Source: Peptococcaceae bacterium (GTDB lineage: Bacteria; Bacillota; Peptococcia; DRI-13; UBA5745). From it: a DNA stretch of 64,000 bases. The notes under the pieces are model-generated. The model saw nothing but the letters and a program-made list of their open reading frames with translations. It ran no database searches and had not been told where the DNA came from. Of the stretch, positions 20,846 through 26,932 are shown piece after piece. The stretch spans positions 9,421-73,420 of the forward strand of contig JAYFQF010000024.1 in assembly GCA_034927285.1 (NCBI GenBank), given 5' to 3'. Numbering within the stretch: the first letter of the stretch is position 1; every line of letters starts with the position of its first letter. Position numbers and translations under genes: made by a program.

Positions 20846-23800
20846 TTATTGAAAAAGATAATCGTAGTCCGATAAAAGCGCAGCCAGCAGGGGAGAAAAG
20901 CCGCCGGGCAGGTTCTTTATCTCCTCATCCGCCGCCCCGATACCCGGCTCTGTCTCCGCCCCGGCGTTCAGCTCTGCTTCCTGAAGGCGCCACTTGAAGA
21001 CCCGCCCTCCCAGGCGCACTAGGAAGTCGCCCCGGTCCTTGTCCGTCAATAAAAATCCCTGGTTTTCACTGTTTTCAAAGTCCTCCTGGCTGCCGAAGAG
21101 CGTCAGCTTATCTCTGTAGGGAGCGCTGTCATAGGGACAGAAGGCAGCACAGTTGCCGCATTCGTTACACATGCCGTCAATATGGACAATCTGGACAGCC
21201 CGGCCTTCCACATCCACCGCTACATTTGCCCGGTTGGGACACACCTGGACGCAGCTTTCGCAGAACGTACCGCAGTCGAGGCAGCGCTGGCCTTCATTTT
21301 CCGCCCCGGCGGCGGTGCGGAGTGTCCCCCTCTTGGCCGCTGCGACAGCAGGTCCTTGGCTATAGCCGGGCCCGGGTTCGCGACGGTCAAGGCCCAGGGC
21401 TGCCAAAATTGCCTTGGCAGCCCTGGCGCTGTCGGCTATAGCTTCCACTACCGTGGCAGGCCCTTTGCGTCCGTCTCCCACCACATAGATCCTGCCGCTG
21501 AATTTTCTTTCTCCTTCCGGAGTTTTATCAGCTTTTTCCGCCGCTGCCACAGAAGCACAGCATGATCCGGCAAAGGGCTCGCCAGCCTGTTCGCCAGACA
21601 GTGACTCACTTTCGTTGGTCTTACCGTCAACAGGTGTTTTGCCGTTTTCTTTACCGGCTATACACTCCCCGCCGGTATCGGTAAATACCGCCGCCAGCGA
21701 ATCCTCAGCCAGGACAGGCCGGCCCTGGTCGTCTGTCTTTAAACCGAAGACTTCATAGAAATGCCCGTCTGTCCTTTCGCCTACGGCGCTGATCAGGCTG
21801 TGGCAGGGCACCCGTAAAATGTCTGCCGTAGGCTCCGGCCGCCGGCGGCCGTCAGTCCCCGGGGCGCCAAGAACCATTTTGCGGCAGGTCAGGATTCCGT
21901 CCTTTAAGGATTCCGGCGTCAACAGTTCCAGAAATTCCACGCCGTCTTCTTCGGCCAGGCGCAGTTCCTCCCCGTCGGCCGGCATATAGCGGCGGGTGCG
22001 CCGGTAAACTAAAGACGCCGTCTCCACCCCCGGCCAGCGCTTAGCCGCCCGGGCGGCGTCCATGGCGGTATTGCCGCCGCCGGTCACCACCACGTGCCGG
22101 CCCAGGCTCAGGGCCGGATCATCGGCCTTGAACCTTTGCAGGAACTCCAAAACATTCAGAGCCTTTCCTTCCTTCAATTCCAGATGTCCCGGCTGCCAGG
22201 CGCCTACGGCCAGGATCACATGGGTAAAGCCTGCCGCCGCCAGCTCAGCCGCCGATTTCACTTGGCAGCCTGTACGGATTTCTGCGCCCAGGGCCGTCAG
22301 CAAAGCCACATCCTTGTCGATGGCGTCGTCGCTGATGCGAAACTCCGGAATGACCTGGCGGACAATGCCCCCCAGCTGCCGGGCCTTTTCAAAAACAGTC
22401 ACCGGCACGCCCTGCCGGGCCAGGAAATACGCTGCCGCCATACCGGCAGGCCCGCCGCCCACTACGGCTGCCCGGGCAAGGGTTCTTACCTCAACACCCT
22501 TTTTCACCGGCAGCTCGCCCTGGATCCGGCCGCCGACCTCTTTAACGACCTTCTCCCCGGCTTCTTCAGCGGCTTTTTCCCGTGTCTCCTCAGCAGCCTT
22601 ACTCTCGCCCTCTTCGGCAGCCTCTCCCGGGACTCTGCCGCCGGCTCCTTCAGCGGCCTTTTCCCGAGCCTCTTCGGCAGCCTTTCCCAGGTATCTCTCT
22701 TCCGGCACGTCTTCCGCTTTTCCTTCCTGTTCCCGTAACTCCGTCAACAGCTGCTCAAAGGCTTTTTCCGCCGCCAAAAGCTTGGTATCCCGGATCCTCA
22801 CCGGTTCCTCGTAAAAATTCCGGGTACATTTCTCCATACAGCGGTGATTGCAGATGGTGCCGGTGATAAAAGGCAGCGGATTCTTCTCCGTAATCACCTT
22901 CAGAGCTTCCAGATAGCGCCCTTCTCCGGCCAAAGCCACGTAAGAGGGGATATCCTGATGAATGGGGCAGCCTTTCTGACAGGGGTTGGTAAAGCAATCG
23001 AACAACGGCACCTTTTCCGCCAGCTTGCGGGAGGGCAGGGGTTTAACGCTTTTACGGCTTCCGGGCGCGTCCTTCAGCCCGGCGGCAATACGGTCCAAAG
23101 CCGCCAGGTCCACGCCCTCAAACTCCCGGTAAGGATATTCAGCCAGCCTTTCGGCGATCTGGGTCAGCCGTTGGTAACCGCCGGGCTTCAGCAAGGTGGT
23201 GGCCAGGGTAATGGGCCAGATGCCGGCGGCAAAAAGCGCGCCGATATTAAAATAATCGGCGCCGCCGGAATAGGAGATGCGCAAAGCCCCCCCAAACTCC
23301 CGGGAGAGTTTCCTGGCCAAAGACACCGTCAGAGGATAAAGGGCCCGGCCGGACATATACATTTCCTCTCCCGGCAAAACCCCTTCCCGGTTATCTACGG
23401 GGCAGGTATTGGTCAGCTTCAGGCCGAAGGAAAGGCCCCTGACCCGCGCCTTATCCAAAAGGCGTTTAACCATCGGCACCGCATCTTCGTACTGCAGATC
23501 CCCCTTGAAATGGTGGTCGTCAAACTCCACGCAGTCAAAGCCCAGCTCATCCAGGGTCTGCCGGACATCATCATAACCCAGCATAGTAGGGTTGCATTTG
23601 ACAAACGTATTCAGTCCCTTTTCCTCCAGGAGGTAAGCGGCGATACGCTCGATCTCCTGGGGCGGACAGCCATGGAGGGTGGACAAAGTGATGGAATTGC
23701 ATATCCTGGGGGAAATGCCCTCCACATAAGCCTGGTCCACATGGGCAAAGCGGTCCGTATTTTCCAGGGCCCACCGGCGGCACTCCTGCCAGACCGGGGT

Positions 23801-24325
23801 TTGGGAGGCGTCCTTCAGGCCTTCGATAAAATTGTCGATCTTAGGCGATTTGATCCCTTCCAGATCATAACCTACGCTCATATTAAAGATGAAGCCGTCT
23901 TCCCGGCCCAGCCGAAATTCCCGGCTGATCAGCTTGATGGCATACCAGGCCCGGACATATTCCTCTAAAGCCTGAGACACCCGAAGTTCCGTAGACCATT
24001 CGCAGTTATAGCATTCGTCCCGGGCGTCGATACAGGGTTTGGCCACCGGCAGGTCCCGGCCGTCCAGGGTCTGCACCGTCTTTAGTTCGAAGAAACGGCT
24101 GCCGGCGTAATAGGCCGCGACGATGTTCTGGGAAAGCTGGGTGTGGGGGCCTGCCGCGGGTCCAAAAGGAGTTTCCAGCTTTTCCCCGAAAAGGGACAGC
24201 AGCTTGCCGTCGGCGACTTTTTGAAAAGGCCTGGCCACGCCGAAAATCGCGCCTTTTTGCCTATGCTCGGTTAAAATCCAATTCATCAGGGTTCCAAAAG
24301 GAAGGGGCCGCATGACGTCGCTCAT
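20846..24325 (-). CDS. ygfK: YgfK (putative selenate reductase subunit; DHODH-like + GltD-like FAD/NADPH + 4Fe-4S)
   Basis: MSDVMRP, GPAAGPHTQLSQN, YNCEWSTEL, CPIHQDIP, VVGGGPAG, GGGNTAMD, CLDC..CESCVQVCPNRAN. Confidence 0.93.
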   Translation of the reverse strand: MSDVMRPLPFGTLMNWILTEHRQKGAIFGVARPFQKVADGKLLSLFGEKLETPFGPAAGPHTQLSQNIVAAYYAGSRFFELKTVQTLDGRDLPVAKPCIDARDECYNCEWSTELRVSQALEEYVRAWYAIKLISREFRLGREDGFIFNMSVGYDLEGIKSPKIDNFIEGLKDASQTPVWQECRRWALENTDRFAHVDQAYVEGISPRICNSITLSTLHGCPPQEIERIAAYLLEEKGLNTFVKCNPTMLGYDDVRQTLDELGFDCVEFDDHHFKGDLQYEDAVPMVKRLLDKARVRGLSFGLKLTNTCPVDNREGVLPGEEMYMSGRALYPLTVSLARKLSREFGGALRISYSGGADYFNIGALFAAGIWPITLATTLLKPGGYQRLTQIAERLAEYPYREFEGVDLAALDRIAAGLKDAPGSRKSVKPLPSRKLAEKVPLFDCFTNPCQKGCPIHQDIPSYVALAGEGRYLEALKVITEKNPLPFITGTICNHRCMEKCTRNFYEEPVRIRDTKLLAAEKAFEQLLTELREQEGKAEDVPEERYLGKAAEEAREKAAEGAGGRVPGEAAEEGESKAAEETREKAAEEAGEKVVKEVGGRIQGELPVKKGVEVRTLARAAVVGGGPAGMAAAYFLARQGVPVTVFEKARQLGGIVRQVIPEFRISDDAIDKDVALLTALGAEIRTGCQVKSAAELAAAGFTHVILAVGAWQPGHLELKEGKALNVLEFLQRFKADDPALSLGRHVVVTGGGNTAMDAARAAKRWPGVETASLVYRRTRRYMPADGEELRLAEEDGVEFLELLTPESLKDGILTCRKMVLGAPGTDGRRRPEPTADILRVPCHSLISAVGERTDGHFYEVFGLKTDDQGRPVLAEDSLAAVFTDTGGECIAGKENGKTPVDGKTNESESLSGEQAGEPFAGSCCASVAAAEKADKTPEGERKFSGRIYVVGDGRKGPATVVEAIADSARAAKAILAALGLDRREPGPGYSQGPAVAAAKRGTLRTAAGAENEGQRCLDCGTFCESCVQVCPNRANVAVDVEGRAVQIVHIDGMCNECGNCAAFCPYDSAPYRDKLTLFGSQEDFENSENQGFLLTDKDRGDFLVRLGGRVFKWRLQEAELNAGAETEPGIGAADEEIKNLPGGFSPLLAALLSDYDYLFQ

Positions 24326-24326
24326 C

Positions 24327-25664
24327 TTAACACCCTCCGTTGATCCGCCGCCAGAGAGCCGCGGCGGCCTTTCTCGATTCTTTCATGATCTCTTTTTCAT
24401 CCACTCCCAAAATCACCCGGTTTTCCATCAGCACCCGGCCGTCGATGACGGTGGCGGTGACGGACAAACCGTTCATTCCAAAAAGGATATGGCCGTTGGC
24501 GTTTGACGCGTCCATGGGGGTCAGGGGATCGTATTCACAGACGATGACATCCCCTGCGGCCCCTTCCTTCAGTACGCCCAGAGGCTTCTGGAAATAGCGG
24601 TTGGCAATTTTGGCATTGTTTTCAAACAACATCACCGGCACCTCGTTCCAGGCCACGGTGGGATCGCCCAGGTTGTGCTTGTGCAGGATGTTGGCTACCT
24701 TATAGGATTCCAGCATATCGTTGGTATACCCGTCGGTGCCCAGCCCCAAAAGGATGCCTTCACCAAATATCTGCAGCATGGGTTCGCAGCCGATGGCGTT
24801 GCCCATATTGGATTCGGGATTATGGACTACCATGGTGCCGGTATCCCGGAGAAGCCCCATTTCTTCCTTGTTTATATGGACGCAGTGTACGGCAATGGTC
24901 CTGGGCCCCAGGATATCCAGGTCATAAAGGCGGTTTATCACCCTTTTGCCGTATTTGGCCAAAGAATCCTGAACATCGGACAACCCCTCCGCCACATGGA
25001 TGTGATAGCCGGCCTCACCCCGGTGCCGGGCACAGTAATTCAAGGTGGCGTCCGACAATGTAAAGGAGGCGTGAAGCCCCATCATGCCGTACTGCATATC
25101 GGTGCCTTCGGCGGCGCAGGCCTGGATAAAGGCCCGATTCTCCTGCACGGCCTCTTCCATCTTGGCGGCGCCGTCCCGGTCGGAGACCTCATAGCAAAGG
25201 CAGGTCCGCACGCCCAGCTCCCGGGCGACTTTGGCGATTTCAAAAAGGCTGCCGGAAATCTGGCCGTAACTGGCATGATGGTCAAAAACGGTGGTGACCC
25301 CGCAGCGGATACAGTTCAGATAGGTGGCGTAGGCGCTGTAACGGTCATCCTCCAGGGTCAGCAGCCGGTCCAGTTTCCACCACTGGCCTTCCAAAATATC
25401 GTTGAAGCTTTTCGGGTTATACCCCCTGATGGAAAGGCCCCGGGCAAAGGCACTGTAAATATGGTTATGGGTATTGATCAGGCCGGGCATGATCACGCCG
25501 CCGCCGGCGTCCACGAAGCGGGCCTGGGGATACCGGGACCGCAGCCGGGCCGTGTCGCCCACCTGCCGGATCAACCCTTCCTCGATATACAGGCAGCCGT
25601 CCTCCAAAAATGGGTTTTCCTTATCCCTGGTGATCATTCTGCCGTTTCCTATCAAAATACTCAT
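24327..25664 (-). CDS. ssnA: Amidohydrolase SsnA
   Basis: PGLINTHNHIYS, GLHASFT, HIHVAEG, VHNPESNMGN, GTDG; immediately upstream of ygfK. Confidence 0.92.
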   Translation of the reverse strand: MSILIGNGRMITRDKENPFLEDGCLYIEEGLIRQVGDTARLRSRYPQARFVDAGGGVIMPGLINTHNHIYSAFARGLSIRGYNPKSFNDILEGQWWKLDRLLTLEDDRYSAYATYLNCIRCGVTTVFDHHASYGQISGSLFEIAKVARELGVRTCLCYEVSDRDGAAKMEEAVQENRAFIQACAAEGTDMQYGMMGLHASFTLSDATLNYCARHRGEAGYHIHVAEGLSDVQDSLAKYGKRVINRLYDLDILGPRTIAVHCVHINKEEMGLLRDTGTMVVHNPESNMGNAIGCEPMLQIFGEGILLGLGTDGYTNDMLESYKVANILHKHNLGDPTVAWNEVPVMLFENNAKIANRYFQKPLGVLKEGAAGDVIVCEYDPLTPMDASNANGHILFGMNGLSVTATVIDGRVLMENRVILGVDEKEIMKESRKAAAALWRRINGGC

Positions 25665-25789
25665 TTCCCATACCCTCCCGTTTTCAATTTTCCGATTTTT
25701 TACTGTGCCGGTTAATGCGCCGGATTCCCCCCGGGCCCCTTCTGCCGGTAATCCTTTACGGCAGCAGAAGCCGCTCCTATGCCCTGGTT

Positions 25790-25860
25790 CTAACGGGGCC
25801 CACTACGGTCCTAACGAGACCCACTACAGTCCTAACGCGGGCCTAACGCGCTCCTAACGC
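25790..25860. repeat. Degenerate tandem repeats (CTAACG-containing 21- and 11-bp units) in ssnA leader
   Basis: ctaacggggcccactacggtc / ctaacgagacccactacagtc / ctaacgcgggc / ctaacgcgctc / ctaacg. Confidence 0.7.
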
Positions 25861-25873
25861 CGATCTCTTCCGA

Positions 25874-25924
25874 TAACAAAAATGAGCGCCTCCCCTTCCG
25901 GACCCGGAGAGGGAAAACACTCAT
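25874..25924 (-). terminator. Intrinsic terminator inside the ssnA-ygfK leader (attenuator candidate)
   Basis: Minus-strand hairpin ATGAGTG...CGCTCAT followed by TTTTGTT, between the promoter and ssnA. Confidence 0.6.
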
Positions 25925-26033
25925 ACACGAATCCGCCCAAAAGCCGGAACTCGCATGAGTGATAGGCAGCCCGTGCGCGAAGCACTTCCTTGCAGCTATC
26001 ATTCTCTATGCATTTCATCAATTTTCTGAACTT

Positions 26034-26062
26034 ATCATAACAAATTCCTTCATTGAATGCAA
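26034..26062 (-). promoter_or_regulatory. sigma70-type promoter for ssnA-ygfK
   Basis: TTGCAT-N17-TATGAT with TG extension; about 360 nt upstream of ssnA. Confidence 0.7.
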
Positions 26063-26257
26063 TATTGAATGCATACCACCATTATTTTTTTTAGATCAGA
26101 AAAAATTTTTTCAGGAAGCGCCTTGTATTCCCCGGGGAATGTGTTATAGTGAGGGTGCAAAGAGTCTGAAAAATCCAAAACCGGCATAGGCTTCGTTACT
26201 CAGCTTCCTTAAGTAAGAGGCTAAAAAAGGGAGAAAGAGGCCAAAAAAGGGAGAAAT

Positions 26258-26932
26258 ATGAAAGAGCTGAACAACTTCACTTTAGATCTGCTGAGCCGGC
26301 TGGCCAAAGGCCTGGCCATACAATTTGGCCCCGACTGCGAAGTGCTGGTCCACGACCTGACGGCGCAAAACATGGATAGCACCATCATGGCTATCGAAAA
26401 CGGCCACGTAACCAACCGCAAGCTGGGGGACGGCCCCTCCCACATCGTCCTGGAGGCCCTGAAGGAGGATCCGGCCCGGCTGGAGGATCAGCTGGGGTAT
26501 CTTTCCCGGACTCACGACGGCCGTATTCTGCGTTCCAGCACCATCTATATCCGGGACGAACAGGGCAAAGCGGTAGGTATCCTGTCCATTAATTACGATA
26601 TCACCCATCTGATGATGGCGGAAAAAGCCCTTCAATCCCTGATTGGTTCCCTGCCGGGAACAGAGGCCAAAGAGCCGGAATGGATCCCCCAAAATGTCAA
26701 TGAGCTTTTGGATGAACTGATCAATCAGTCCGTGAACCTGGCAGGAAAGCCGGTGGCTTTGATGACCAAGGAAGATAAGATCCAGGCCATCCGGTTTCTG
26801 AATAAATCCGGCGCCTTTCTGATCACCAAGTCCGGCGACAAGATCGCCAGGCACTTTAACATCTCCAAATACACGCTCTACAGCTACATTGACGCCGCCC
26901 AGGAGGCGGAACAGCAACCATCCAAGCCATGA
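26258..26932 (+). CDS. YheO/DauR-like regulator (PAS + HTH)
   Basis: FGPDCEVLVHDL, IMAIENGHVTNRKLG, LRSSTIYIR, GILSINYD, LNKSGAFLITKSGDKIA..FNISKYTLYSY. Confidence 0.88.
   Translation: MKELNNFTLDLLSRLAKGLAIQFGPDCEVLVHDLTAQNMDSTIMAIENGHVTNRKLGDGPSHIVLEALKEDPARLEDQLGYLSRTHDGRILRSSTIYIRDEQGKAVGILSINYDITHLMMAEKALQSLIGSLPGTEAKEPEWIPQNVNELLDELINQSVNLAGKPVALMTKEDKIQAIRFLNKSGAFLITKSGDKIARHFNISKYTLYSYIDAAQEAEQQPSKP

Follow-up and report, generated by a model that had tools for sequence, protein, structure and literature searches.

The ssnA motif was reportedly one of 224 candidate structured RNAs described by Weinberg et al. in 2017. It is catalogued in Rfam as RF03031 ("ssnA RNA"), an orphan family of the Cis-reg class, with hosts that are presumably Firmicutes/Clostridia. 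Among other leader RNAs, the pbuE (ydhL) adenine riboswitch is a transcriptional ON switch with a three-way-junction aptamer, and trp-type attenuators run through successive alternative helices, with a leader peptide and a stalled ribosome as the first element. Protein-dependent antiterminators use sequence-specific hairpins that overlap terminators. The xanthine riboswitch (NMT1) senses oxidised purines (xanthine and urate; Yu and Breaker 2020, PMC7373994) and acts in Proteobacteria as a translational OFF switch without terminators (PMC7373994). The xanthine riboswitch and the ssnA motif are both short hairpins with conserved bulge or internal-loop nucleotides, and both accompany purine-degradation genes, but the ssnA motif matches the xanthine riboswitch neither in sequence nor in structure, and it differs further in having terminators, in its lineage and in its probable direction. 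Moreover, the genes of the xanthine riboswitch act before xanthine and urate, whereas those of the ssnA motif act after urate: two 2025 preprints assign YgfK as the NADPH:2,8-dioxopurine reductase of a reductive urate pathway and put SsnA at the ring-opening step after YgfK (bioRxiv 10.1101/2025.04.24.650524, 10.1101/2025.05.19.654654).

The leader studied here lies in a window of 64,000 nucleotides (the whole stretch of DNA that was analysed), in which the motif and the genes behind it are placed as follows.

Positions 25958..26005, minus strand: match to RF03031, the hairpin core (covariance model, full length).
Positions 24327-25664, minus strand: ssnA (NCBIfam equivalog SsnA, 664.5 bits).
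Positions 20846-24325, minus strand: ygfK (NCBIfam equivalog YgfK, 1335.7 bits).

The leader core (26005-25958, minus strand) matches RF03031 with 62.3 bits (E = 7e-17), against a gathering score of 37.3 bits that is the cut-off for membership, and it covers the full model (positions 1-48 of 48) with zero non-standard pairs in its alignment to the consensus. The features of the family hairpin are all present, namely P1 and P2, the conserved asymmetric internal loop and the YNYGC apical loop, and the loop nucleotides agree with those of the copies collected from other genomes. The placement is also that of the family, since the motif lies on the coding strand and its end is some 290 nt before the start of ssnA. 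The leader therefore shares with RF03031 the hairpin, its conserved loop nucleotides and the coding-strand site upstream of ssnA, and the core shows no difference; the model, however, ends at position 48, and the outer helix, the antiterminator helix and the terminator described below are all unannotated in it. A covariance-model search found this to be the single ssnA RNA copy in the whole genome. The purine (RF00167), NMT1/xanthine and other families gave no match at E up to 1 between 25600 and 26300, nor did the RF00167 and xanthine (NMT1) models anywhere between 13000 and 33000. The sequence-only reading had taken the leader for a candidate undescribed riboswitch or attenuator; the Rfam covariance-model check, for which a match to a known family had been set beforehand as a refuting outcome, returned exactly such a match, so the element is one already described. 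It is a canonical copy of a catalogued orphan motif and not a new class.

The genes predicted to be under leader control are ssnA and ygfK (20846..25664, minus strand), which encode steps 2-3 of the 2,8-dioxopurine pathway, a reductive route of urate breakdown, and the link to purine-ring catabolism proposed from the sequence fits them well. YgeY, YgeW and carbamate kinase are encoded on the opposite strand. The divergent neighbour of the leader is a gene for a YheO-like PAS and HTH regulator (26258-26932, plus strand), homologues of which occur in 27 of 106 motif-bearing loci and are thus recurrent, not universal. Just upstream of this gene, a 20-nt tandem repeat, AAGAGGCCAAAAAAGGGAGA, is present in 2.1 copies (26215-26256) and duplicates its Shine-Dalgarno-like region. 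The window also holds a full-length FMN riboswitch (RF00050, 38171-38285, minus strand, 116.8 bits).

Two further elements delimit the leader.

Positions 26034..26062, minus strand: putative sigma-70-type promoter (sequence reading; layout recurring at other copies).
Positions 25877..25924, minus strand: intrinsic terminator, a stem-loop and U-tract (folds and comparison with relatives).

The promoter that had been noted for ssnA was borne out as a putative one, composed of a -35 box TTGCAT (26062-26057), a 17-nt spacer and an extended -10 element, TG-n-TATGAT, whose -10 box lies at 26039-26034; the layout TTGCAT-17-TGnTATGAT has its like before most other copies, as TTGCA(T/A)-17/18-TAnAAT. 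From the predicted transcription start near 26027 the leader measures about 363 nt, in agreement with the earlier estimate of about 360 nt. In most other copies, the spacing of this promoter places the motif right at the predicted 5' end of the transcript. On the minus strand, the 10-nt sequence TGCATTCAAT is directly repeated (26073-26064 and 26061-26052), its second copy overlapping the ssnA -35 box; the repeat may be an operator, in which case a protein would act at the promoter besides the RNA attenuator.

The terminator stem-loop (25924-25882) reads AUGAGUGUUUUCCCUCUCCGG-GUCC-CCGGAAGGGGAGGCGCUCAU and is followed by UUUUU (25881-25877). By calculation the hairpin alone folds at -27.3 kcal/mol and is contained in the minimum-energy fold of the full leader, and it is kept with compensating changes in three family relatives (L002-L004). 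Because the minus strand has no upstream gene that the hairpin could terminate, it is the terminator of the leader itself. Neither the ssnA promoter nor this terminator was listed by a consensus promoter/terminator scan, the former because its -35 box matches at only three of six positions, and the latter presumably because of a bulged C in the stem; both were judged from the sequence, the folds and comparison with other copies. The 189-nt stretch holding these elements folds at -69.6 kcal/mol, compared with a shuffle mean of -52.8 kcal/mol (z = -4.4; 0 of 200 shuffles as stable). Between the terminator and the start codon, the ssnA leader carries tandem repeats with periods of 21 and 11 (25786-25860), and unrelated tandem repeats (GCCTGAGTGGCTGAGTT) occupy the same place in the leaders of L003 and L004.

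About 105 unique copies of the motif were gathered by covariance-model searches of genomes and by DNA pattern scans of genome and metagenome contigs. The first genome-wide DNA pattern was too loose, and chance accounted for most of its matches; both patterns fix many core positions, so part of the invariance seen there follows from how the copies were selected. The covariance-model matches, which are free of this bias, show the same core. Within the class of the source genome the motif was found in four of 88 genomes, all of its own family, and in the phylum sample of the source genome it is otherwise rare (1 of 401 genomes). The order of an Oscillospiraceae carrier yielded 12 of 401 genomes, and the named carriers are mostly Oscillospiraceae and other Clostridia.

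Downstream sequence could be read for 100 copies, and in 96 of them the first gene encodes an SsnA homologue. Of the 66 loci that are 6 kb or longer, 52 contain YgfK, and an intrinsic terminator follows nearly every copy. In some genomes, extra copies of the motif precede other genes of the pathway: ygfK at L139, hyuA-like hydantoinase genes at L138 and L152, and, at L137, an operon of NuoE-like, guanine-deaminase-like and NCS2 permease-like genes (the names at L137, L138 and L152 were assigned by reading the sequences). Degenerate half-copies (e.g. GAUAGCUGCAAGGAAGUGCGAAUGCACCGCAGCC) were seen about 70-100 nt upstream of the intact motif in the relatives L002 and L004, and none in the leader of the window.

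A hairpin of about 32 nt is the one structure that every layout shares. In the window, its P1 stem pairs 25998-25994 with 25971-25967 (UAGCU:GGCUG), its P2 stem pairs GTGC (25985-25982) with GCAC (25976-25973), the apical loop is UUCGC, and the conserved internal loop (G13, A15, A16, G18 and A20 opposite G34) is strongly asymmetric, with 8 nt against 1 nt. Across 67 distinct cores, P2 (GUGC/GCAC) hardly varies, with compensatory changes of two types, from C-G to U-A at 24-30 and from U-A to C-G at 22-32. The outer P1 pair, 8-39, is variable in the same cores (UG in 36, CG in eight, UA in three, AU in two and GU in one, with a mismatch in 17). In the 40 distinct copies that are built like the leader of the window, here called type A, P1 is 96% paired with zero pairs changed on both sides, and pair 8-39 is absent from eight of them. 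The sensor is most likely this hairpin, that is, P1 and P2 with their asymmetric, sequence-invariant internal loop.

Such a hairpin could be recognised by a protein instead of a small molecule. The same RNA would then still act as an attenuator, with an RNA-binding antiterminator protein on the hairpin when purines are present, a possibility that we regard as the main alternative, less probable but to be taken seriously. The hairpin is short (about 32 nt), and the sequence of P2 is near-invariant rather than covarying, a degree of conservation that would suit a protein site; protein-dependent antiterminators use comparable hairpins, and in the literature searched no ligand has been reported for ssnA RNA since its description in 2017. 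However, no conserved gene for an RNA-binding protein was found adjoining the motif in the loci examined, where the only recurrent non-enzyme neighbour is the YheO-like PAS/HTH protein (27 of 106 loci), and an HTH usually binds DNA. Hairpin aptamers of similar size are also known, for example that of the xanthine riboswitch (PMC7373994).

In the leader of the window the hairpin is enclosed by one helix and followed by another.

Positions 25957..26004, minus strand: outer helix, P0 (covariation across type-A copies).
Positions 25918..25961, minus strand: helix X, the putative antiterminator (truncated-transcript folds and recurrence in type-A copies).

P0 joins the 5' strand GAAUGAUAG (26004-25996) to the 3' strand CUAUCACUC (25965-25957); a single mismatch, that of A26002 and C25959, is conserved. 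In the 40 distinct type-A copies it takes the form GA.UGRUAG with CUAUCA.UC and 96.3% of its cells are paired, whereas slid controls pair at no more than 50%; three pairs have changed on both sides, and none of 500 shuffles reaches this covariation score. Since P0 and P1 both use U8-A9-G10 (25998-25996), the two cannot fully coexist. An alternative for the P0 state, in which the internal loop would pair with C37-G39 and the linker, was tried and set aside, as pair 14-39 gave no convincing covariation.

The stems listed in the sequence-only reading can now be sorted. GATAG/CTATC (26000-25996 and 25965-25961) proved to be part of P0 and GTGC/GCAC is P2, both of which are conserved, but GGAA/TTCC (25989-25986 and 25949-25946) is not. 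The multi-stem junction that had been proposed gave way to a simpler conserved unit, the hairpin of about 32 nt with its asymmetric internal loop, here inside the outer helix. The hairpin ACTC-ATGC-GAGT (25960-25949), which had been proposed to sequester CACTCAT, is present but not conserved across the copies; what is conserved is the pairing of CACUC with GA.UG, the 5' flank of P0. The insert carrying ACTC-ATGC-GAGT and GGAA/TTCC differs in relatives, and both were therefore treated as chance and rejected as functional stems.

Helix X would pair CACUCAUGC (25961-25953) with GUGUAUGAGUG (25928-25918; paired bases 25926-25918) and close a variable hairpin insert (25952-25927). The exact complementarity of CACTCAT (25961-25955) and ATGAGTG (25924-25918) on the minus strand, noted at the outset, was confirmed, and the first 7 nt of the terminator are the 3' strand of helix X. 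A CACUC:GAGUG pairing adjoining the terminator recurs in most type-A copies. X overlaps the terminator by 7 nt in the window and in the three family relatives, by about 3 nt in the typical copies from Oscillospiraceae and by 5 nt in one subclass. Compensatory variants of X were also found: L242 has CACUG:CAGUG, and in the subclass with the 5-nt overlap X is shifted to ACACCUAUCAU:AUGGUAGGUGU. The terminator/antiterminator layout proposed for the ssnA strand thus stands, with a pairing of the CACTCAT/ATGAGTG type that is conserved and covaries in other genomes.

A further complementarity is seen at the 5' side of many copies. An ACAAUC box, 3 nt upstream of the motif and complementary to GAUUG at motif positions 2-6, occurs in 28 of 52 type-A leaders (for example L017, L041 and L154), compared with 18% in shuffles; it is absent from the window. 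By pairing, ACAAUC and GAUUG could make one more alternative hairpin where the transcript begins.

The conserved inverted repeats might instead constitute a DNA operator, for example for the divergent YheO-like regulator, with incidental RNA folds. GTGC-N5-GCAC and TGATAG...CTATCA are indeed palindromic in DNA, the regulator gene adjoins, and the 10-nt repeat TGCATTCAAT overlaps the -35 box. We consider this explanation very improbable, however, because three of the pairs, U12-G35 (invariant), U8-G39 and G7-U (both frequent), can exist only in RNA of this strand, because the internal loop, with its 8 nt against 1 nt, is strongly asymmetric, and because the element is always downstream of a promoter and upstream of a terminator with an arm that pairs to the element.

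Two of the features expected of a riboswitch are present as judged by computation: a conserved, structured sensor in the 5' leader, and mutually exclusive structures coupled to it. The coupling of the terminator to the sensor is direct in more than 20 copies and goes via P0 and X in the window. In each of these unique copies the hairpin 3' half has 10 nt, of which 7-10 form the 5' arm of the terminator, and forcing the hairpin in the folding calculation leads to loss of the terminator. When the 3' half of the hairpin is itself the terminator arm, a stabilised hairpin can give only read-through, so these simpler layouts would be ON switches. They resemble pbuE in that the 3' part of the sensor likewise serves as the terminator 5' arm, and an occupied sensor therefore prevents termination; the ssnA aptamer is, however, unrelated to that of pbuE, and the coupling in the window is indirect, by way of two additional alternative helices, P0 and X. 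For one gene and one sensor, opposite logic is unlikely, and the layout of the window is accordingly read as an ON relay; its direction is inferred from the simpler layouts controlling the same gene. Given that the leader is an attenuator at all, we think that it probably works in the ON direction.

The overall reading that we prefer, with a probability of roughly one half, is that the ssnA RNA leader is an attenuator that turns on ssnA-ygfK in response to an effector linked to the purine pathway, by means of a relay of alternative helices. Without effector, U8-A9-G10 would pair with the distal CUA, and P0 (GAAUGAUAG:CUAUCACUC) would form and hold CACUC. With P0 closed, the 5' arm of the terminator (AUGAGUG...) would be free, the terminator would form, and transcription would stop about 215 nt before ssnA. 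A bound effector would lock P1 (UAGCU:GGCUG) and so prevent the closure of P0; with P0 open, CACUCAUGC would pair with GUAUGAGUG as helix X, and the base of the terminator would be blocked, allowing read-through. Such a chain resembles trp-type attenuators in that P1, P0, X and the terminator overlap in succession, each excluding the next, but the leader of the window has no leader peptide, and its first element is a conserved structured sensor.

The folding calculations bear on this relay as follows. In truncated transcripts ending before the 3' arm of the terminator, X forms in the minimum-energy folds with or without a lock on P1, and in full-length folds of the window layout the terminator forms in both states, P1 locked or not. 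As the folds are the same with or without the P1 lock, the thermodynamic model gives the relay no support; folding supports the ON direction only for the direct-overlap layouts and for two GGAUGGAC-type leaders (L143 and L144). In a small subclass, formed by L019, L141 and L225, hairpin and terminator (GGUGUUCAUUC...) adjoin and overlap by only 1-2 nt, and P0 and X are lacking. The layouts of this subclass and of the GGAUGGAC-type leaders lie outside what the relay and the direct-overlap scheme explain.

The same helices could also be arranged as a classical OFF switch, in which the effector would close the aptamer including P0, so that CACUC would be held, X blocked and the terminator formed; without effector, X would form and ssnA-ygfK would be expressed. 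The order of closing helix, antiterminator and terminator is that of a standard OFF switch, P0 has the strongest support of the helices in the type-A copies, X is the default in the truncated-transcript folds, and the xanthine riboswitch is itself an OFF switch (PMC7373994). Nevertheless, the more than 20 copies that precede the same gene with a terminator made from the 3' half of the hairpin are compatible with ON only, and it would be unexpected for a purine to repress a catabolic operon whose enzymes act after urate. On these grounds we hold an OFF switch to be unlikely and retain the ON attenuator as the preferred reading. Induction of a catabolic operon by its own substrate is the expected logic.

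As for the effector of the ON attenuator, the controlled genes act in purine breakdown and thereby point to 2,8-dioxopurine or urate; a small purine-pathway metabolite of this kind is the most likely effector, to which we would give slightly less than an even chance. Ligand, binding, transcript or reporter results for the ssnA motif were not found in the literature searched. Taken in its most specific form, the reading is that the ssnA motif is a metabolite riboswitch of the ON type, with an aptamer of about 32 nt for 2,8-dioxopurine (isoxanthine) or urate and, in leaders such as that of the window, a four-helix relay; this we put forward only tentatively. If it is true, the reductive urate-degradation pathway of gut anaerobes would gain in this motif its first described regulator, and the riboswitches a new ligand class.

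In 2025 the downstream enzymes were assigned to the 2,8-dioxopurine pathway, the route of urate removal in gut bacteria, and this now provides a short list of directly testable ligand candidates for the ssnA motif. If one of these candidates proves to bind, microbial urate disposal would have in the motif the sensor that turns it on, which would be relevant to research on gout and hyperuricaemia, and the motif may find use as a compact biosensor for urate or isoxanthine.
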